A DNA stretch of 64,000 nt from NCBI RefSeq assembly GCF_963921235.1, contig NC_086097.1, forward strand, positions 136,898,001 through 136,962,000, given 5' to 3'. The position numbers and the translations under genes are program-made. Origin of the DNA: Mobula hypostoma. Taxonomy: Eukaryota. Positions 49,101 to 64,000 of this stretch are shown piece by piece. The notes under the pieces are model-generated. The model did no database searches. It was not told where the DNA came from and saw only the letters and a program-made list of their open reading frames with translations. The stretch's first letter is position 1; every line of letters starts with the position of its first letter.

Positions 49101-52100
49101 GCCACACTAGCAAATTCTCCACTCTATTGAATATTATTCCCATTAATACCCACATACCAGTTAAATTCACGTATTTTAGATGCTACACCATTTTATAATG
49201 TTACAATGAACCCAGTAAATTTTAAAGTGTGAGGGTCCTGGGAAACAGGGTCCCAGTGACTTTCGGAGAAGTGCAGGAGCCAGGGCCCTGGTGAATTTCA
49301 GAGGTAAACCATCTCTCTCTCTCTATCTCTAACACTATCTCTCTCTCTCTCTCTCTCTCATTCTTACTTTTATTCTAACTCCGAAGACTTTCTCTTTCTC
49401 TCTCTCTCTCACTCTCTTCTGCAGTCTCTCTCTGATGTAATGCGAGTACAGATGGCAGCCTAACTCTAATAAGGTTAACACTAGTGGTCAAAGACAATTT
49501 TCTCTCTCTAACCAGCTGCAGTTCTATAAAATCCTTTGGCCTCTCATCACTTCCCTTGTTCCAACTTCTTCCACACCCTCTACTTCCACCAGTGCCGGTC
49601 CTGCTTACCAATGTTTAGGCTCCGTACTCCAGATACTCAGCTTCTCCTATCCTCCTTCCTTCAGTATTACTTTTTGCCACAACATTTAATTGCCTTTACT
49701 GTCACACTCAACCTAAGTGCAATCTGAGAGGCACTTAGAAAGTTTTACTATGTTAGAAGTACTGAATAAATCAGATAGTTTTGTTGTAATATAGATTCCA
49801 TAGCTATAGTTATCTGTGGTTGTAGATGAACAGTGGGAGTACAATCCTATGTTCGTTTCTCCAATGAATTCACACAGGTGGAAATGCCAGGAGCAATTTT
49901 ACCCAGAGGGCATGACCTGCCTCTTCTCAGTGCTATTTTACAGAAGGAATGCCCTTTAAACACCCACAAGAGAAACAAAAGACACTAAAACTTCAACACT
50001 CTGGCCTACTCCCTGAAAGAGTTTCACAAAGGACATCCATTGTCATTTGCAGTACACCATTGTCCCAGTAAAAGTACTGTTTTGTCTTTAAATTCTAAAG
50101 TTATAATTTGAATGGATTGTGTCCACAAGACCACGAATGGTGATGCCACTCTGGCAAATTCTCCGGACGACTGGATGTAATTGCCATTAATACCCCAACA
50201 GTTTGAATTTAATTTTTCTTTAGACGTTACACCATGTTACAATAAATTTTCTAGTGAACCTAGCGAGTTTAAATGGCCTGCTGGAAACAGTCCCAATGAG
50301 TTTCGGGAAAGTGTGCTTTCCCAAAGAGGAAAGGGTGCTTGTGAGTTTCAAAAGAACACCATTTTTCTATCTATAAGATTCAGATTTATTTATTGTGCAT
50401 ATGGAAATGTACAGTAAAATGCGTCATTTGCATTAACAACCAATTCACCCAAGGATGTATTGAGGGCAGGCTGCAAGTGTTGCCATACATTCCAGCATGA
50501 CCACAAGTTCTCTCTATGAACACACACAAACGTGAGTCAAAGATGGCTGCAATAAGGGAACACACAAGAGGATTATGTACACCTAGCCTGGGCAACCTGC
50601 TTTTAACCTATTTGACTTGGTCAATGCAGTTTGGAATAGCCAGGATCTGATCACTGTAACCCAGGACCAATGAGATGTTCACTCCTGCATCTCCAGAGGT
50701 GCATTCTCTGTGACCAGTATGTTGAACAATCCCCAAGTACATCTTCTCCAACAACAAAGCTAAGAAAAGGCAGGAAGACCTCTATTCCTGGATTCTACAT
50801 GGAAGTTGGTATACTGCAGCAGGAAATCACCAGAAAAGTTTAGGAGCTGTTCAGAGAGCAAACAGCGCCTAGCCAGGAAGTTTGAAACAACTGGTTTCAT
50901 GTGGGAGTCCTGAAACCTGTACTCCCAGCAGTTCAGTAAAGAACTGCCATCAAAGACCACGCCAACAAGACAGCGATTTTTGTTTTAATTTATTAACTGC
51001 TAGTTTAATACACCATTCTACAGATTACCATGTAATCAAAATAAAACTGCCAAAGCAGGCGCTGAGGCTACTGCACAGTAAATCCCATGTAGTGAATTCT
51101 AACGTAACATTATTTAAAACTAATTTATCCAGACTTACCCTTGGGCCCCTTTCTCCTTTCAGACCAGGAGGACCCTGCAACAGAATTAAGAGTAGATTAA
51201 ACAGAAATATATGAAGTTTAGAGACAACAAGCACCTCGAGTCTACACCACAGAAACAGCCGTTCAGCCCAGCTTGTCTTTGCTGACTTCTTTCCTCCTCT
51301 CATCTCTCTCCTGCCCCTTCTCATTTCATCCTTTTTCTTGAACCAACCAGAACAACTCTAATCACTACCTCAAGTATAGTGACACCATTGCCACTTTGCA
51401 TGACAATGGTCTTTTATTCTTGTTCCAACTGTGTTCTTTCTCGTAGAATGTATGTTAGTGTTTTCATATAAATGTTGTGTCTCTAGTGCTGTGTTTGTAA
51501 TGTTGTAAGTTTTTCTTTGCACTTGTGTATACATGTATTTATGCACATGACAATAAACTCAGCTTTTACTTTTCCACAGAACTTGCTGTTCATTTCTTCC
51601 TGCCCTTTATTTTCACACATATTCTCTGTGGACTTTCACAAGGGAGATCCCTTGAGTTACATAAAATCACGAAGAACAGATTAGTAGAGCACACAATGTT
51701 GTGCCAACCTTTAACCTACTCCAAGATCAACCTAATTCTTCTCTCCCACATAGCCCTCCACTTTTCTTTCATCTCTGTGCCTATCTGAACAACTCAATGT
51801 ATCTCTAATGTATCTCCCTCTACCACCACCCCAGTAGCAAGTTCCCTGCACCTACTACTCTCTATATGGAAAACCAAACCTACCTCTGACATCCCCACTA
51901 TACTTCCCTCCAGTCACCTTAAAATTATGCACCCTCATGTTAAGTTAATTCTGCCCTGGGAAAAAAGAATGTGCAAAACAAGATAGTAATGCAGAGACAC
52001 AGTTAGAAACAAGTCCATGTTAATGCAAGAGGTGGTCTATAATTGTTGAGGAAGATTAGAGTGACTTCTACATTCATCTGTAAGAGGTAACGTCCAGTCA

Positions 52101-55100: not shown

Positions 55101-58100
55101 GCTATGTACTGAAGTCCACACAAAGCTAGATACATTCAAAGGTAAAATGCCAATAAAGCCATCCCATCACCGAAGATAGAAATACTCTATGGTGCTTATC
55201 GTCCATCTTGTTGTGTATTTCAAGTCTAAGAGAACATCTGTGGCTCTGCTGCAATGATTATCCAGTCAGAACAAAAAAAAAGCATCTGCACATCTGTTTC
55301 TTGCTCAAAATATTCAAATGTTGGCCTATCACAACACATTCCTACTGATATCTCGTCACTGAAATAAGAGATTAATTTTCTGCGTCATTTTTCCTCTAAT
55401 TCTAGTTGAACAATGCTTTATCATTGGCAGAGGTACGACCAGTAGACGTTCTACTTACGGGAGGTCCTATGTCGCCCTGAGGACCGGGACTTCCTGCAGC
55501 TCCAGGGGAACCTGGGACTCCTGGACTCCCCTATGAGGTCATTCAATGCAACATTAATTCCACAGCACAGATGCACTAACTGCTTTAAGCATATTGATTC
55601 AGACAGATATGGGGCTCGTAAAGACCTTGCATCAAAACTGGCTGCCCCACAGGGGAAAGGAAATGAGCATTTAACTTTATTATGAACATCAGGAAAACTT
55701 GAGGCTCTCAAAGCAAACTCTGCCATTGTTTCATTTGTATTATTATTTTCCATGTAGTTGACGATCTTCGAAAACATCAAATGAAAATGTTGCAAAATGA
55801 TCCAAAAAGAAAATTTTTTAAAGCATTATACATTTGAGCATTAATTAGCCCTTTTTACATTTTATATAATAATATTTATCATTATACAGGTATTTAATAA
55901 TAGATGTTTAAAATACCTTTTCTAGATTGTTAACAGACCTGTACTCTTTAAGTTAGAATAATAGTGCAGAAAAAACATACAAAACTAACAAAAAATAATT
56001 TTAATATAATTGGTAACCAGTATAAAATTGTTGATAAAGGAGTTAATTTACTGAAGTCTTCCCTTAAAAGAAACACCTTAGTGCTTTCACTCATAGCATC
56101 AATATTATTTCTGGAGAGAAAAGGATATCACAGAACTGACGGGGTGGGTGGGATGGAAAGCTGTTAATGTTTAATGTTTATAAATATTCCTTATTGGGTG
56201 TTGCCTATATTATTAACAATGTATCTTGGGAATTTCAAGAGAATACAGACTTTTAATCACAAAACATAGGATTTTTGGTTTGCAAATATATTACAAGCAA
56301 CTGTCAGGGATAACTGAACAAAGGCTATGAGAACGATAGATCTTTTAAACAATATACAGTACAATCATATAAATAATCAAACACAAAGACATTGTACAAA
56401 GCATAGAGGGTCTCATCCAAGTTCTTTGAAAAAAGTGTCAAAGGTATTTTGCAGCAAATGAATTTGGTAAATCATACCCCTGGATATTTACTAAAACCTG
56501 GAAGCAGACTGAAGACTCAGCCATAAGCAAGTTCATAGTTCACTTTCCTCCCCTCCTATTGTGAAAAAGTTGTTACATTTCCTAATGTGTTAACATTGTT
56601 CATAAAGTTTAATATAAAAAATCTGTAATTAAATGCACGTAACTCTTCAGGTGCTACAGGCAAATACATTAGGGATTTTTAAGAAGCTCTCCGGTAGGGC
56701 TATGTAGGCGGGAAGGATCAGATTGATCTTAGAGTAGGCTACATGGTCAGCACAACGTCGAAAACCGAAGGGCCTCTACTGTGCAGTAGCGTTATATATT
56801 CTAAGTGTTGAAACAAATAACAAAATCAATGCAAAAGATAAAAAAATGAAAACTAAATCAATGCATTAAGGATTCTGCTCTATAACATTGTCCCAATCTT
56901 ACTCTTTATATCCAAATTAAATGGATGAGCACACAGGAAATTGTGCATTGCTTTATTTACATCTGTCTCTGATCCAGGATGTTATGGTTGGAGCAATGAA
57001 AGCATTTTTTTAAAAAAAGACTGTAGCTCATAGTTCACCTTGAGAAAGCCAACAAAGCTCAAGGGATTTGCACAAATGTGCAGGTTTGAAGCATTATTAT
57101 TACAATGAGATGGTTGTGTCAGAACCTGATGAATTCTTTTAAAGAGATCCTCCATGCTCTGTTGTTATATGCAGAGAGGAGATGGTGTTAGCTTCATCAC
57201 ATACTCACATTTAGCTGGTTAGAGCTGGCCATTAGGTCGAGTATGAGTCTCTAAACCAATATTAAAACTTAGTCAGCTTGCTTATGTTCCAGTTCTGGTC
57301 TGGGACAACAAACTTACTCCATACTTAACCTGTAGTGAGGTATTTAATTTTGGTTTGGATTCCAGAATGATATATGGGAATTTCTTCACTGGCTTAAACA
57401 CAAAGAGCTGAAGATAGCGTCATTCTCTATTGGTCTGTCTTTAGCCATAAGTGGTTATGGTTTGTGGTCTGAATTGTAAATATGGAGTTCTACACCTCCA
57501 GCAGGCAGAGAGGCACAGCACTAATATACTTCAAACTTGCTAGTTCTTGTTCCAGATTCCAGCATCTTTGATCTCCTTTGTCTTCCTACTCACTGTGGAA
57601 CCTCAGTTTGAACTTGGGAGCAGAAATTATGGGATCAACAGCTTCCTCTGATTTTAGCTCCTTTGAATAGCACCCTGAGAGGCGGGTGTGGATGAATTTG
57701 ATGCTGAGCTTACATGTTAATGAACAATGTCACTGCATTCCATTAGGAAGTATGTGCGGAAATATCAGTTCATGCATTAAGCATTGGATTGGGTCCATGG
57801 TGGTAAATAAAGCCCCAACTGTCTTCCAAAATATCTGCATTAGAATGAGCAACAGGGTGATCCCAAGATGATAACTGTAACTACTTTGTAATATCTGCCA
57901 AGTACCACAATCAGACATATTAGCCATCATTTAACACACAGCTGGCATTATTCAGCTCAGCCTTCCTCTCATCCTGCCAACTATGTTTTGGCGAATTTTC
58001 TGCATGCATTCACCAGGATTTTTGTTCTTGTCAGTTTCCTAGGAGTGGTCTACATGACTGCACAGTTCCTGCCAATCACTCTGAATAATGCCACTCAGTT

Positions 58101-61100
58101 ACAGGGTGGGTACTACTTTTACATATGCCCTGGTGCTTGGAGAGCAAAGTCCATTTAAGGGAAGTGAAAACAGGAGTGTGTGAAAGAGGTCAGTCACTCC
58201 AGAATTGAATATTCAAGATCCACCAACAACTTGATGGGGCCAAGGAGCAAAGTTTTGCCAATACCCATAGAATTACATACCCGGGATACTGAGGGAGCAG
58301 GAAGCAGGAAACACTTCAAGTTTCTACAGATCTTCGAGAAGTCCGTAAAGAGGAATCAAATGATGAGAGTCTCGTTAGCCCACAGGCGGACTGTGCCTCA
58401 TAGACAAGGAATGCATGTTGGGAATGTGGGTTCAAAAACCAGAGGCCATATGTTTGTTTTGCCTGTAGTAATAATAATAGTGTCCTGTTTTCACATCCCA
58501 ATTCTTGACAGATGGGCTGAATCCATTGAACAGGTAGGCAGAGTAAACAGAAGGCAGGCCAATGCTGGGAGATTGGAAAAGCAAGTCTTCTCTACTAATT
58601 CACCTTTATTTCTTGTAGAAACGCCAGTGTAATGGTGTTGCATTGAAGGATGTCTTCTAATGGCAGAAGAATACTAAAAACACTCATATTACCTCAGTTC
58701 AGAGTGGCCGTTTCAGGCAACAACTCCAACATTGAGCTTCCCAGAGTGCATTTCATTCAAAACAAGGAGTTTAAAATTAGACAATGGATCCAGTTCACAC
58801 AAGAGGCGTCGTTCTGAGGTGAATAATCCCAAAGTAGCCTCCCTGGGATTTTATTTGTGAATTCAAAAGGTTTCTGGAAGAGCCGGCATTCATTGCCCTT
58901 TGTTAACTCCCCCTGTGAAGGTGGTGTCGAGCTGATGCCTTAAACTGTTACAGCTGGAGCTAATTCTAAGGCAATTTATAAACAGGCATTGCCTGGTTTC
59001 AAGAAGTGAGAGTATGAAGAGACAAGTACGGGTGGTGGTAGACAAACAATGTGGTAAAGTTGAAGGATAATTAAAATATTGAAGGAAATGGACCGCTGAG
59101 AGAGGTCAGTTTTTGAATCAAGTGGGATCAATCTTTATAGGAAGCCATGGAAGCATATTAGAAGTAAACACAGACAACAATATATGTCTTACAAAGAAAG
59201 CCCGGCAGAAAATAAAGTGATCCCAGATCATTGCTCTGCTTCAGGGCCACGAGAGTATTCCATAATTTAAAATGTTCAGTAGGTGCACACACAGCCAATA
59301 GGTAACAGCCCCCTCACTGGATGAATGGGTACTTGATCAGACATAAAGTACTACGTTGGAACGATGGGATGCAAAGGTGCAGCCAATTGCAGTGATTTTA
59401 TGGTGTTATTCCTTAGCTACATAAAATAAACTTACCCTCCCACCTGGAAAACCAAATGGTCCCAGAGGACCCTCCATACCTCGTCGACCCTGAAAAATTA
59501 ACAGTGTTAAATACTTATGTATAGATGAGGCATGCAAATGGACTCACCACTGGCCCAGGTGAACCTGGTGGCCCAACAGATCCATCTTTACCCATGGGAC
59601 CCTGGATCAAAAGTTGATGGCAGAAGTCATTGCATGAATTTGCAAATATGAACTCATACTGATATATTTAAGCCCACAGACAATTCATTTCAATTGCAAT
59701 GAAATGTGCTTCGTGGAAACAATAAATTCAATTTTACAAATTTCCACATTCTGGTTATTGTCACAACAGGAAGAACTTACAGCACCTTCAAAAACCTTAG
59801 ATGTCCTAAAAATCTTTATCTCTAATAAAATATGTTTGAAGGTACATGCTATAATGTACAAAATGTGACAGGCAGTTTGTGCACAGCACCCTCCCACCAA
59901 AGGCAGTGTGATAATGCTGAGATATCCCTTTTTAATGGTGTTTGAGGGATTAATATTCATCCCACAACACCATTGATTAGCCTCTTTTTTGAAGTATTGA
60001 TTCTTTTGAAGAATGATTTACGTTCATTTGGAAGAGAAAGCAGGGTTTTAAATCTGCCTTACGATTTGCTTCTTGAATTGTGCCGCACTCTCTCGGTGCT
60101 GCATTACCGAGCACCACCCTGGATTTTGTGTTCAGGAATCCATTGCAGGACTCCAACCCCGACATATCATGATTCAGCTCCCTGCTTTGTGATCCTCATA
60201 GTACATCATTTATGGCTTGATAATCTACTCCCAAATGTCAAGCCAGCTGAGAAAAAGGAGGTACTTTCTGAGAGGTATGAAAAATGAAACCTTGGATGTC
60301 ACAGCCAATTAGGTTATGAACCATCTGTGGTGAAGGCTGGAAAGACTTGACTCATAGAAACAAATCCTCACACAGCCTGGTGAAATGTTGATATGGAAGA
60401 AGATCTCCTCAAACAGGAACTGTGACTTCAGGGAAGATCGGAGAGGGAACAGAGGGAAAAGGGCAGGGGTGAGGGGTTAGAGCAGGGGGATGGGGGAAGG
60501 GCAGTGGTCAGCGGGTAGGGCAGGGGAAGGTATAGATGGAAGGGGATGGTGTTTGATGGATTATATCTGATCATGAGGGAGCAGAGGTGGTGCATGATGG
60601 GTGGTATCAGACCATGAGAGGTGGTAAGTGTGTACAATAGGCAATATGAAAAAGATGCAGCTAACTCAATTTCCCCCTATATTAACCAAACATTACAACA
60701 CGATAGCACTTGGGTACAATAATCAGACTGGATAGACTAACTATTTACCCAAGCTTTGTCATTCCTGATGTCATGTCCTTTGCTTGTGACAGATTATGAT
60801 TCACTGTAACCTTTCTCTTGCAGGCTTTACTGGTCTTTTTTGCTTAGTGGATGTATGCCAATTCTATTTACATGACAGTAAACCGTATCTGGAAGCTGAG
60901 TGGTGTTCAGGGCCTTGTAGTAATTAAGGACAACACCTAGTGGTCTGGGACTTAGTGAAGATAGAGGCCAGTTAAACTCTAGTGAAGTCTGTCAAATCAA
61001 AGAAGCCAACAAATTCAGTTGCCAAATGAATACTAATTAATGCTAAAGACAACTCCTAAATTAAAATGTATAATGGTAAAATTCAATCAGAGGAGCAGAA

Positions 61101-61541
61101 GTAATTGAAGATAACCAATCAGCGCCTGTTTTGTGCTCTACCCGAAGTTTTTTTTTCCTATCCCGTCCAATGAGACAAGGGTATCTGATTCAGCACTGCC
61201 CATATGGTTCTTCCTCCCATGGAACTGCACCTCCTGTGTTGGTGGTCCTCTCTGTGCACACCATCCATACACTTCAATAGAAGGAATGTTTTGGGGCTTT
61301 CTAATTCATAGCCCCTCACTCCCAACAAAAAGCTCTGGAGTCTCCAGAGTTCCAGGCTCTACAACAAGCCAATGCACACCCACCCAAATCCCAGGCTTGC
61401 TCCAGTGCTGGCTCTGTGAGAGAAATGGGCCTAAAGGAGGATAACAGAGTAAATCCATTAGCATCCAGATGGAATATCAAGGCTTACCCTTTGACCTGGT
61501 GGCCCGTCTCGTCCTGGGAGTCCTCGGGGACCTGGCAGACC
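27796..61541 (-). CDS. col14a1: Collagen alpha-1(XIV), 3' part of gene (multi-exon; the 5' part lies beyond the window end)
   Basis: Phase-compatible GT-AG exons join to [43 protein letters not shown]...[55 protein letters not shown]...|...[11 protein letters not shown]. This matches collagen XIV COL2-NC2-COL1 as I recall it, including the FACIT C-x4-C motif. The convergent mrpl13 neighbour fits known COL14A1 synteny. Confidence 0.92.
28973..29016 (-). CDS. col14a1: col14a1 candidate alternative terminal exon, short NC1 ([14 protein letters not shown])
   Basis: First AG after a long AG-free pyrimidine tract. The phase-1 reading aligns without gaps to the recalled human isoform ending DLIPYNDYQH (Y-x-D-Y-Q conserved). 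Confidence 0.65.
29303..34060 (-). mobile_element. Old CR1 fragment hosting two extra CR1 3' ends (about 29563-30045) and a younger CR1
   Basis: [20 protein letters not shown]; host sequence rejoins across 30759/33769. Confidence 0.8.
30759..33768 (-). mobile_element. CR1 LINE, near-complete ORF2 (APE + RT) with a few frameshifts, truncated at the end of ORF1
   Basis: ORFs 33031..33711 (NARSI, ITETWL, GDFNFP), 32141..32809 and 30820..32004 ([14 protein letters not shown]); TTCTATG tail. Confidence 0.93.
34475..36231. mobile_element. Tc1-family (IR/DR type) non-autonomous foldback element with TA TSD
   Basis: TA|CAGTAGTATGCAAAAGTTTGGGCACCC ... GGGTGCCCAAACTTTTGCATGCCACTG|TA; inner direct repeat at 34667; DDE remnants ([20 protein letters not shown]) on + at about 35390-36020 and mirrored on - at 34692-35383. 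Confidence 0.93.
35104..35247 (+). mobile_element. Rex1 3'-tail fragment inserted in the left arm of the Tc1 element
   Basis: Reverse complement of the Rex1 3' end at 7104-7240; ATGTT repeated at 35099-35103 and 35243-35247. Confidence 0.85.
36449..36604 (-). CDS. col14a1: col14a1 COL1/NC1 exon, 156 nt (GPQGEGRTG...[18 protein letters not shown])
   Basis: tattacag|GC...G|gtaggg; ends with the FACIT cysteine pair C-x4-C. Confidence 0.93.
36808..37561. mobile_element. Non-autonomous hAT element (Charlie-like TIRs) with 8-bp TSD TTCTAATG
   Basis: CAGGGGTCCCCAA...TTGGGGACCACTG; TTCTAATG at 36800-36807 and 37562-37569. Confidence 0.9.
37998..41085 (-). mobile_element. Degenerate Rex1/Babar LINE with a second element inserted at about 38821-39570
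   Basis: [21 protein letters not shown] and FGKSDHL remnants; (CTTTGAA)n-type tails at about 38000 and 38822. Confidence 0.75.
42394..42471 (-). CDS. col14a1: col14a1 COL1 exon, 78 nt ([27 protein letters not shown])
   Basis: ttttcctag|GT...G|gtaaag; has the GVG imperfection typical of the FACIT COL1 domain. Confidence 0.93.
44663..44851 (-). CDS. col14a1: col14a1 NC2/COL1 exon, 189 nt ([34 protein letters not shown]...GRPGERG)
   Basis: tctccttag|GT...G|gtaac; phase 1-1; contained in ORF 44613..44960. Confidence 0.93.
45800..45990 (-). mobile_element. HE1/V-SINE-like SINE
   Basis: Minus strand GGAGTTTGCACCTTCTC..GTGGGTTTCC..CCCACATCCCAAAGATG core. Confidence 0.65.
46042..46108 (-). CDS. 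col14a1: col14a1 COL2/NC2 exon, 67 nt ([22 protein letters not shown])
   Basis: ctgtttcag|GGA...CAG A|gtgagt; carries the QVCEQLI motif of collagen XII/XIV NC2. Confidence 0.93.
46485..48715 (-). mobile_element. Highly degenerate CR1 fragments with an inserted Penelope-like piece (about 47530-47757, +)
   Basis: [13 protein letters not shown] remnant; CAGTCCTGACGAAGGGTCTCAGCCC motif at about 47655. Confidence 0.65.
49313..49432 (+). repeat. (CT)n microsatellite cluster
   Basis: Several interrupted CT dinucleotide runs. Confidence 0.85.
51139..51174 (-). CDS. col14a1: col14a1 COL2 exon, 36 nt ([12 protein letters not shown])
   Basis: ttgcag|GGT...AGG|gtaagt. Confidence 0.92.
52530..52860 (+). 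mobile_element. HE1/V-SINE-like SINE
   Basis: GCTGCTGTCTCACAGCTCCA..GTGACTGTGTGGGT..TTTCCTCCCACATTCCAAAG core and a CR1-like tail. Confidence 0.65.
54340..55110 (+). mobile_element. Degenerate CR1 3' fragment interrupted by a Penelope-derived inverted repeat (about 54470-54652)
   Basis: [10 protein letters not shown] remnant; host resumes at actaggatcttgcctggattagaggg. Confidence 0.75.
54557..54593 (+). ncRNA. Decayed minimal hammerhead ribozyme of Penelope type (probably inactive)
   Basis: AGTC-CTGATGA-A-GGGTCTCGGCCC-aAAA-C-aTt-GAC; the CUGAUGA box and stem II are intact, while GAAA and the GUC triplet are mutated at CpG positions. Confidence 0.6.
55459..55530 (-). CDS. col14a1: col14a1 COL2 exon, 72 nt ([24 protein letters not shown])
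   Basis: ctcatag|GGG...CCC|gtaagt; eight Gly-X-Y triplets. Confidence 0.92.
59436..59489 (-). CDS. col14a1: col14a1 extra COL2 exon B, 54 nt ([18 protein letters not shown]), probably an alternative to exon A
   Basis: tttttcag|GGT...AGG|gtaagt; six perfect Gly-X-Y triplets; only 58 nt downstream of exon A. Confidence 0.85.
59548..59601 (-). CDS. col14a1: col14a1 COL2 exon A, 54 nt ([18 protein letters not shown])
   Basis: ccag|GGT...GTG|gtgagt; resembles the mammalian segment GLPGKDGSSGPPGPPGPI (recalled). Confidence 0.92.
61488..61541 (-). CDS. col14a1: col14a1 COL2 exon, 54 nt ([18 protein letters not shown])
   Basis: tgtgttcag|GGT...AGG|gtaagc; six Gly-X-Y triplets, phase 0-0. Confidence 0.93.
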
Positions 61542-62604: not shown

Positions 62605-64000
62605 TCACAAGACAAAGGAGCAGAAGTAGGCCATTCAGCCCATCGAGTCTGCTCTGCCACTCCACCATGAGCTAAACTATCCTCCCATCTAGTTCCAACT
62701 TCCAGCTTTTTCCCCATATCCCTTGATACCCTGACTAATGAGATACCTATCAATCTCCTCCTTAAACACCCTCAATGATCGGGCCTCCACAGCTGTATGT
62801 GGCAACGAATTCCATAAATCCATGACTCTCTGGCTAAAAAAACATTCTCCTCATCTCTGTTTTAAATGGGTACCCTCTAATTCTAAGTCTGTGGCCTCTT
62901 GTCCTGGACTCACCCACCAAGGGAAACAACCTTTCCACATCGACCCTGTCCAACCCTTTCAACATTCGAAATGTTTCTAGAAGATTCCCTCTCATTCTTC
63001 TATACTCTAATGAATACAGTCCAAGAGCCGAAAAACGCTCCTCATATGTTAGCCCCTGCATTCCAGGAATCATCCTCGTAAATCTTCTCTGAACTCTCTC
63101 CAACATCAGTACATCCCATCTAAGATAGGGGGCCCAAAACTGCACACAGTATTCCAAATGAGGTCTCACCAGTGCCCCATAGAGTCTCATCAACACCTCC
63201 TTACTCTTATACACTATTCCTCTTGAAATGAATGCCAACATAGCATTCGCTTTCCTTACCGCCAATCCAACTTGGTGGTTAACCTTTAGGGTATCCTGCA
63301 CGAGGACCCCCAAGTCCCTTTGCACTTCTGATTTTTGAATTTTCTCCCCATCTAAGTAATAATCTGCCCGATTATTTCTTTCAAAATGTACAACCGTACA
63401 TTTCTCAACATTGTATCTTATCTACCATTTCTTTGTCCACTCTCCTAAACTGACCAAGTCTCTCTACAACCTTTCCGTTTCTTCAACACTTCCTGCTCCT
63501 CCACCTGTCTTGGTGTCATCTGCAAACCTAGACACAAAACCAATTAATCCAAAATCTAAATCATCGCTATACATTGTAAAAAGAAGCCGCCCCAACACCG
63601 ACCCCTGCAGAACACCACTAGCAACCGGCAACCAATCAAAATAGGATCCTTTATTCCCACCCTTTGCTTTCTGCCTATCAGCCAATGCTCCACCCATTCC
63701 AATCTTTCCTGTAATTCCATGGGCTCTCATCTTATTAAGCAGCCTCTTATGCGGCACCTTATCGAAGGCCTTTTGAAAATCCAAATACACAACATCCACA
63801 GCCTCTCCCTTGTCAATCTTATTTGAGATTACCTCAAAAAATTCCAATAGGTTGGTGAGGCAGGATCTTCCCTTTATGAAACCATGCTGGCTTGGGCCTA
63901 TTTTGTCATGCACCTCAAGGTATTTCATAACCTCATCCTTGAGGATCGCCTCCAATGACTTTCCAACTACTGAAGTCAGACTAATATGTCTGTAATTTTC
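62605..64000 (-). mobile_element. CR1 LINE 3' part, continuing past the window end
   Basis: ORFs 63464..63955 ([15 protein letters not shown]) and 62834..63325 ([13 protein letters not shown]); 3' UTR ending TCTTGTGATC. Confidence 0.92.

Follow-up and report, generated by a model that had tools for sequence, protein, structure and literature searches.

The window analysed here is a stretch of 64,000 nucleotides from the ray Mobula hypostoma (NC_086097.1, positions 136,898,001 to 136,962,000) and harbours two short, neighbouring collagen exons, termed A and B. Their host gene is col14a1, which encodes the FACIT collagen XIV. Orthology and domain order agree in this assignment: the locus is arranged as vWA-FN3-vWA-TSPN-COL2-NC2-COL1-NC1, as for col14a1, with vWA, FN3 and TSPN exons located in stretches upstream of the pair, and one of these vWA exons shows 98% identity to collagen XIV of rays (elasmobranch collagen XIV range 91-98%). 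The last exon matches the M. hypostoma RefSeq protein in 101/101 residues and M. birostris in 100/101. Exon A and the four constitutive window exons tested recur without a single change in XP_062912438.1 (P0131) of M. hypostoma, from which exon B is absent. By DNA search, the locus of the pair is single copy in the genome. Two alternative C-terminal (NC1) endings of col14a1 were noted, one with a long last exon (28101-27799) and one, in isoform X3 (P0126), that is short; alternative NC1 ends of collagen XIV are already known. Elsewhere in the window, a LINE-like reverse-transcriptase remnant was recognised by eye at 62700-64000, and positions 56696-56800 hold a high-copy repeat fragment on which contigs pile up to great depth in each of the four runs.

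Exon A (59548..59601, minus strand) and exon B (59436..59489, minus strand) are 54 nt long each and in phase 0, with AG before and GT after, and are separated by a GT-AG intron of 58 nt (59490..59547, minus strand). This arrangement had been described in the initial annotation and was fully borne out by the sequence. Adjacent exons of equal length and frame with usable splice sites are what is expected of mutually exclusive exons. Upstream of the pair lies a constitutive 54-nt COL2 exon (61488..61541, minus strand; at residue 1545 of P0131) and downstream a constitutive 72-nt COL2 exon (55459..55530, minus strand), which is likewise present in P0131. The last COL2 exon, with 36 nt (51139..51174, minus strand), precedes the NC2 exon at about 46111-46040. 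As judged by inspection, the donors of A (GTGAGT), B (GTAAGT) and the upstream exon (GTAAGC) are all U2-like.

The two peptides differ in character. The A 18-mer contains five Pro, one Lys and one Asp and has a net charge of 0, whereas the B 18-mer of M. hypostoma contains three Pro, three Arg, one Glu and two Phe (the Arg and Phe counts first reported are correct) and has a net charge of +2; most sharks have four Arg. Within 13 of 13 B peptides, R2, P8, F14, P15 and R18 are invariant, and of the two Phe only the second (position 14) is conserved. Mean pairwise identity of the non-Gly residues among 11 species amounts to 0.71 for B, 0.64 for A, 0.59 for the upstream and 0.67 for the downstream exon, and the conservation of B equals that of its neighbouring exons. 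In a relative, represented by one DNA contig of run X14 (depth 4.7, a fourth organism), the A-intron-B block differs in 9 of 287 letters, whereas seven intronic pieces together have 224 differences in 2621 letters (Fisher p 5e-4); nine or fewer differences in this block would have a p of 0.005 if constraint acted on A alone.

The B junction has not been seen directly, which would leave room for B being a chance or dead pseudo-exon and its gene models being annotation artefacts. Against this stand the five invariant non-Gly residues in 13/13 conserved peptides and the rarity of such exons: the pattern AG/(Gly-X-Y)x6/GT occurs 14 times in 1,716,000 bases on both strands, all 14 occurrences are open collagen-type exons in frame with a collagen gene, and the chance expectation for the 4-kb intron is about 4e-7. 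A pseudo-exon is therefore scarcely credible.

Two functional motifs were considered in B and rejected. A furin-like motif (R-x-R-R) at the joint of the upstream exon and B was dismissed because 3/13 species have Lys or Gln at position 3 and the site lies inside the helix, and an integrin-type motif (GFxGER) because B lacks the Glu. Concerning the relation of the two exons to each other, A and B are identical in 29 of 54 nt, versus 21-31 in non-orthologous collagen exon pairs, and the score of B against the A profile is equalled by 17% of the background windows (10,720 overlapping collagen windows, mostly of collagen VII). The likeness of A and B is thus no higher than among other collagen exons, and the sequence does not demonstrate a tandem duplication.

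The use of the two exons was followed in gene models. A total of 69 elasmobranch col14a1 proteins from 20 species were available (many isoforms per species are included, and one shark cluster was entered by 15 of its 34 members), of which 54 carry A, 14 carry B and one is without the region. None of the 68 models covering the region, which may miss rare forms, has both exons or neither. The spacing from the TSPN end to NC2 is 186 aa in 67 models (53 with A and 14 with B), with one shorter partial model, in agreement with the exclusion at constant COL2 length proposed beforehand. B is modelled in 12 of the 20 species, sharks as well as rays, and 11 of these 12 have both forms. The species with B are Heptranchias, Heterodontus, Carcharodon, Scyliorhinus torazame, Chiloscyllium plagiosum, Hemiscyllium, Stegostoma, Rhincodon, Leucoraja, Rhinoraja, Hemitrygon and M. 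birostris, which span Hexanchiformes, Heterodontiformes, Orectolobiformes, Lamniformes, Carcharhiniformes, Rajiformes and Myliobatiformes. The initial annotation had named cross-species conservation as a test of exon B, and B has passed it. The pair is conserved in sharks, skates and stingrays and is used one exon at a time in all gene models. As a separate observation, three of four models of Heptranchias perlo (P0140/P0139/P0141/P0004) carry B, which may be the major form in the tissues sampled, and in all four models the next constitutive exon has Ala replacing one helix Gly.

For M. hypostoma itself, all three RefSeq models use A and B is unannotated. Spliced contigs join the upstream exon, A and the downstream exon with GT-AG ends and skip B in 3/3 runs (X1, X2 and X6, from three organisms, which together with X14 make up the four runs used out of 16; runs X1-X10 were taken as RNA by guess), with the joints 61488-59601 and 59548-55530 in each. 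Neither an A-B joint, which would have spoken against exclusion, nor a B joint was found in the spliced contigs of these three runs, and contigs drop rare forms. As contigs show presence and not absence, the missing B joint is not counted against B. Exon A, probably the default form, is joined directly to the flanking exons in 3/3 runs, whereas for B, the basic alternative form, the joints come only from 14 RefSeq protein models, which belong to 12 other elasmobranch species. With only the A path in the three spliced-contig runs, the use of B rests on these automated models, which presumably have RNA reads underlying them.

Among 364 collagen XIV proteins of bony vertebrates, covering fishes, lungfish, coelacanth, amphibians, reptiles and some mammals, 277 carry A, 86 are unscorable and one is mis-registered (P0197, which contains A); the absence of B is one of protein models, and the M. 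hypostoma models likewise omit an exon that exists. The initial annotation had stated that mammals have only an A-like segment, and this holds for collagen XIV in all scorable bony proteins. COL14A1 was also absent from the 10 supplement files on human exclusive exons searched from PMC5740500. No holocephalan, gar or bichir col14a1 was among the matches listed (120 of 282 and 120 of 882). A protein search with the B region was dominated by collagen VII and yielded only two col14a1 matches, both already in the protein set. Overall, it is very probable that A and B are a real mutually exclusive exon pair.

How the exclusion could work is suggested by the 58-nt intron, which is likely too short for splicing. 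Passages of earlier reports put the minimal vertebrate intron at about 76 nt (PMC9438311) and describe a block of joining when the distance from donor to branch point is below about 50 nt (PMC7969005, PMC5740500), and a steric pair has either an intron below the minimum or such a short distance. Here, the intron has 58 nt, and the best branch-point candidate, TTTAAC (59506..59511, minus strand; consensus-predicted), occupies intron nt 37-42 with its last A (59507) at nt 41 from the donor of A, 18 nt before B, matching the approximately 41 nt estimated earlier. The relative of run X14 has a 9-nt insertion behind 59520, which extends the intron to 67 nt and would put the branch candidate right at the threshold, with a donor distance of 50 nt. 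The flanking introns, with 1886 and about 3900 nt, are far longer, so the 58-nt intron stands out.

Other means of exclusion were considered. Since 54 is a multiple of three, frameshift and nonsense-mediated decay (NMD) cannot enforce exclusion, and the pair is not of the NMD type. A mismatch of spliceosomes (U2/U12) is excluded because both donors are U2-type. As to pairs of the docking-site/selector type, which have conserved competing RNA pairings, folding of 59330-59700 is not in excess of shuffles (z 0.02), and among the inverted repeats (25 longest of 67) none was found at the splice sites of the pair beyond 75-78% matches. With frameshift decay and spliceosome mismatch set aside and no excess structure in the region, geometry is left as explanation, and a steric basis of the exclusion, by intron size and predicted branch point, is likely. 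U1 at the donor of A and U2 at the branch point of B would not be able to assemble jointly, which would block A-B joining, and a transcript with both exons and the retained intron would meet a stop codon, an in-frame TAA.

Exclusion might instead be brought about by regulators or RNA pairing, with a short intron that can be spliced and double inclusion that is merely rare. The branch point is predicted only, the 67-nt version lies at the 50-nt threshold, and the intron contains a UGCAUG element, a candidate RBFOX site (59531..59536, minus strand; intron nt 12-17), downstream of A and upstream of B. By chance, such an element is expected with about 2.4% in 53 positions at the window frequency of 4.5e-4 per nt. 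RBFOX action depends on position and, as outlined in parts of PMC11874969, is activating from downstream of an exon and repressing from upstream. From this position, RBFOX would promote A and repress B, which is a weak lead, and A would be the default form, possibly helped by this site. However, 58 and 67 nt are both below the vertebrate minimum, the short intron is conspicuous between its long neighbours, and the region has neither unusual folding nor a strong inverted repeat at the splice sites, so that a purely regulatory exclusion is considered unlikely and the steric basis is retained.

A comparable geometry has been described for the let-2 alpha2(IV) collagen gene of C. elegans, where exons 9 and 10 are separated by an intron of 30 nt at a minimum of about 40 and its excision was never seen (PMC4165533, PMC2119826). 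Both systems have exclusive exons of 3n length in a collagen domain and an intron below the minimal size of the organism. The let-2 exons measure 108 and 111 nt, with 57% identity and a Gly-X-Y interruption as their main difference, and a developmental switch has been demonstrated for them; in contrast, the col14a1 exons, which are part of a FACIT collagen of a vertebrate, are both uninterrupted, count exactly 54 nt and are distinguished by their charge. The initial annotation had referred to alpha-tropomyosin. For this gene and for OGDH 4a/4b, a donor-to-branch distance below about 50 nt was proposed as the block in portions of PMC7969005, and a similarly short distance is predicted for col14a1. 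Yet these cases have a mapped branch point far from the acceptor in a longer intron, whereas the col14a1 intron is short in its entirety and has a predicted branch point, so let-2 is the closer precedent.

In the human survey of Hatje et al. 2017 (PMC5740500), the parts covered list collagen genes with exclusive exons, among them COL5A1 with a homologous pair of 69/69 nt, which is of equal length like that of col14a1 but non-helical. The 27 collagen-gene rows of this source contain no equal-length pair of clean Gly-X-Y exons, the nearest being COL6A2 with 54/63 nt, and COL20A1 is also absent from the 10 files searched. In the open-access literature, no paper was found on the A/B pair in col14a1 or its counterpart in col20a1.

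Some changes in B were seen in rays. The B of M. birostris isoform X2 (P0124) carries Gly4Val at an obligatory helix Gly, a change that would break the helix; Gly takes the place of Arg17 in 3/3 B peptides of Myliobatiformes, and Hemitrygon has Gln for Arg3. The myliobatiform changes Gly4Val and Arg17Gly possibly reflect a relaxation of B, or sequence error. Together with the fact that B is unmodelled in M. hypostoma, Hypanus, Pristis and Narcine, the substitutions could be read as B being functional in sharks while persisting as a relic, in decay and of rare use, in the rays, M. hypostoma among them. This reading is rather improbable in view of the intact B with strong splice sites in M. hypostoma, the B models in Hemitrygon, M. 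birostris and two skates, and the A-intron-B block of the relative, which is more conserved than intron DNA.

A likeness of B to the exon of the same slot in collagen XX had been missed by the initial annotation. When the genome was searched with B, the best non-self match was a paralog exon at C2:199617938 (E 2.3; five candidates scored), with two unrelated collagen exons close behind. This exon follows a paralogous TSPN exon at a distance of 36.7 kb and occupies the slot of A/B, after a 54-nt exon with a like ending and before a 72-nt exon. The gene was assigned to col20a1 because its clade includes a protein with FN3 domains that match, at 131-144 bits, domains of human collagen XX with solved structures. 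A second paralog, on C22, was assigned to col12a1 because it has many more FN3 exons between the vWA domains and matches 3000-residue proteins with four vWA domains. Its slot (C22:7732802) is A-type, and so are the slots of five unnamed outgroup-like proteins outside the three clades, which are probably jawless-fish sequences, although this is a guess. The same slot is hence B-like in col20 and A-like in col12 and bony col14, as is required for a separation of isoforms between paralogs. A protein-cluster search with the col20 exon returned generic collagen clusters only.

Against the 13-peptide B profile, a score of 26.2, reached by 0.02% of the background, was obtained for the col20 slot of the ray and for its closest relative, with 12.3 against A; the other (bony) col20 slots have background fractions of 0.006-0.05 against the B profile. 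For four of the eight col20 slot peptides, the A score exceeds the B score, owing to a proline-rich second half. Arg3 and Arg18 are present in 8/8 col20 slots and Glu6 in 7/8, as in B and unlike A; the combination of Arg/Lys3, an acid at position 6 and Arg18, a pattern chosen post hoc, is found in 12/13 B, 7/8 col20 and 0/12 A peptides and in 0.2% of the background. TSPN trees place col14 and col20 together (support 96/92 and 95/93), the AU test rejects col14+col12 only at p 0.037 and does not reject col20+col12 (p 0.054), and the vWA tree gives no resolution of the grouping of col14, col20 and col12. The exon peptides comprise 12 informative residues, too few for an exon tree. No remnant of A was found in the introns flanking the col20a1 slot and none of B in those flanking the col12a1 slot.

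Three further features of col20a1 were recorded. The ray gene (L062:1286-2100, L022:2164-2322) has a degenerate second vWA before TSPN and thereby a layout close to collagen XIV. A COL2 exon (L042:2006-2060, C2:199615006) ends in a short non-Gly-X-Y stretch, also in P0508, which by its sequence is a helix interruption just upstream of the col20a1 slot. The donors of B (59436) and of the col20a1 slot (L042:4992) have the common start GTAAGTTTA, which is mostly consensus and probably due to chance.

From the slot comparison, a shared origin of A/B with col20a1 appears somewhat more plausible than its alternatives: the pair would predate the col14/col20 duplication and would then have been split between the paralogs. 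It would have arisen before col14a1 and col20a1 separated, with col20a1 keeping B, bony col14a1 keeping A and elasmobranch col14a1 keeping both. Alternatively, B may have arisen inside elasmobranch col14a1, or have been copied in, and its likeness to col20a1 would be convergence in low-complexity Gly-X-Y sequence. Such a course gains from the small number of informative residues, the four of eight slots closer to A, a B-col20 DNA identity of 30/54 that is no better than A-col20, the lack of the B-specific R2 and F14 in 7-8 of 8 col20 slots and the moderate tree support for col14+col20, and it would require no loss in bony vertebrates. It does not account as well for a likeness that falls in exactly the corresponding exon slot, for two cartilaginous-fish-type col20 slots within the top 0.02% of the background and for the shared, post hoc residue pattern. 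Convergence is therefore rather doubtful, and the shared origin is preferred.

A partition of this kind has a parallel. Abascal et al. 2015 (PMC4494069) describe, in the portions considered, paralogs that keep different ancestral exclusive exons while another gene keeps both, with CACNA1C/1D, CDC42, FYN and SLC8A3 as cases, and the proposed col14a1/col20a1 partition resembles this splice isoform separation. As that survey began with human exon pairs, a pair surviving only in sharks would have been undetectable, and the words 'collagen' and 'shark' are absent from its main text. The parts covered of the survey of Lambert 2015 (PMC4417111), which left out exclusive exons, do not contain 'collagen' either.

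At the protein level, the choice of B would replace a neutral, proline-rich 18-mer by a basic 18-mer, with chain length unshifted and helix register kept, and the equal lengths would permit mixed A/B trimers. B would thereby alter the helix surface, most likely the binding to acidic partners such as glycosaminoglycans. A role of the A/B swap in such a binding surface, proposed from the peptide sequences, is so far tentative. As a whole, the explanation offered here, a conserved exclusive pair with a too-short intron as the likely cause and a B exon that is likely ancient and common to collagen XX, is judged quite likely. A wider and more speculative view would be that collagens XIV and XX of bony vertebrates are the separated halves of an ancestral helix splice switch older than the jawed-vertebrate crown, which might still be run inside the col14a1 of sharks and rays and make trimers of equal length that are neutral (XIV-like), basic (XX-like) or mixed and have different binding surfaces by tissue.

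Exclusive exons around a short intron (let-2) and the partition of exons between paralogs were already known, and the B isoform was present, albeit undescribed, in RefSeq models; new, as far as the open-access literature goes, are such a pair and a probable partition of this kind for col14a1 and col20a1. With this pair, a switch of sequence at constant length is placed within the triple helix of a vertebrate collagen, a location for which published cases were found only in nematodes, and it amounts to an exchange experiment of 18 residues set up by nature in the COL2 helix of FACIT collagens, of which little is understood. Should the link to collagen XX be true, the constant difference that separates human COL14A1 from COL20A1 would be an inherited alternative exon pair, and surveys that start from human genes would overlook ancient exon pairs that survive in cartilaginous fishes alone.
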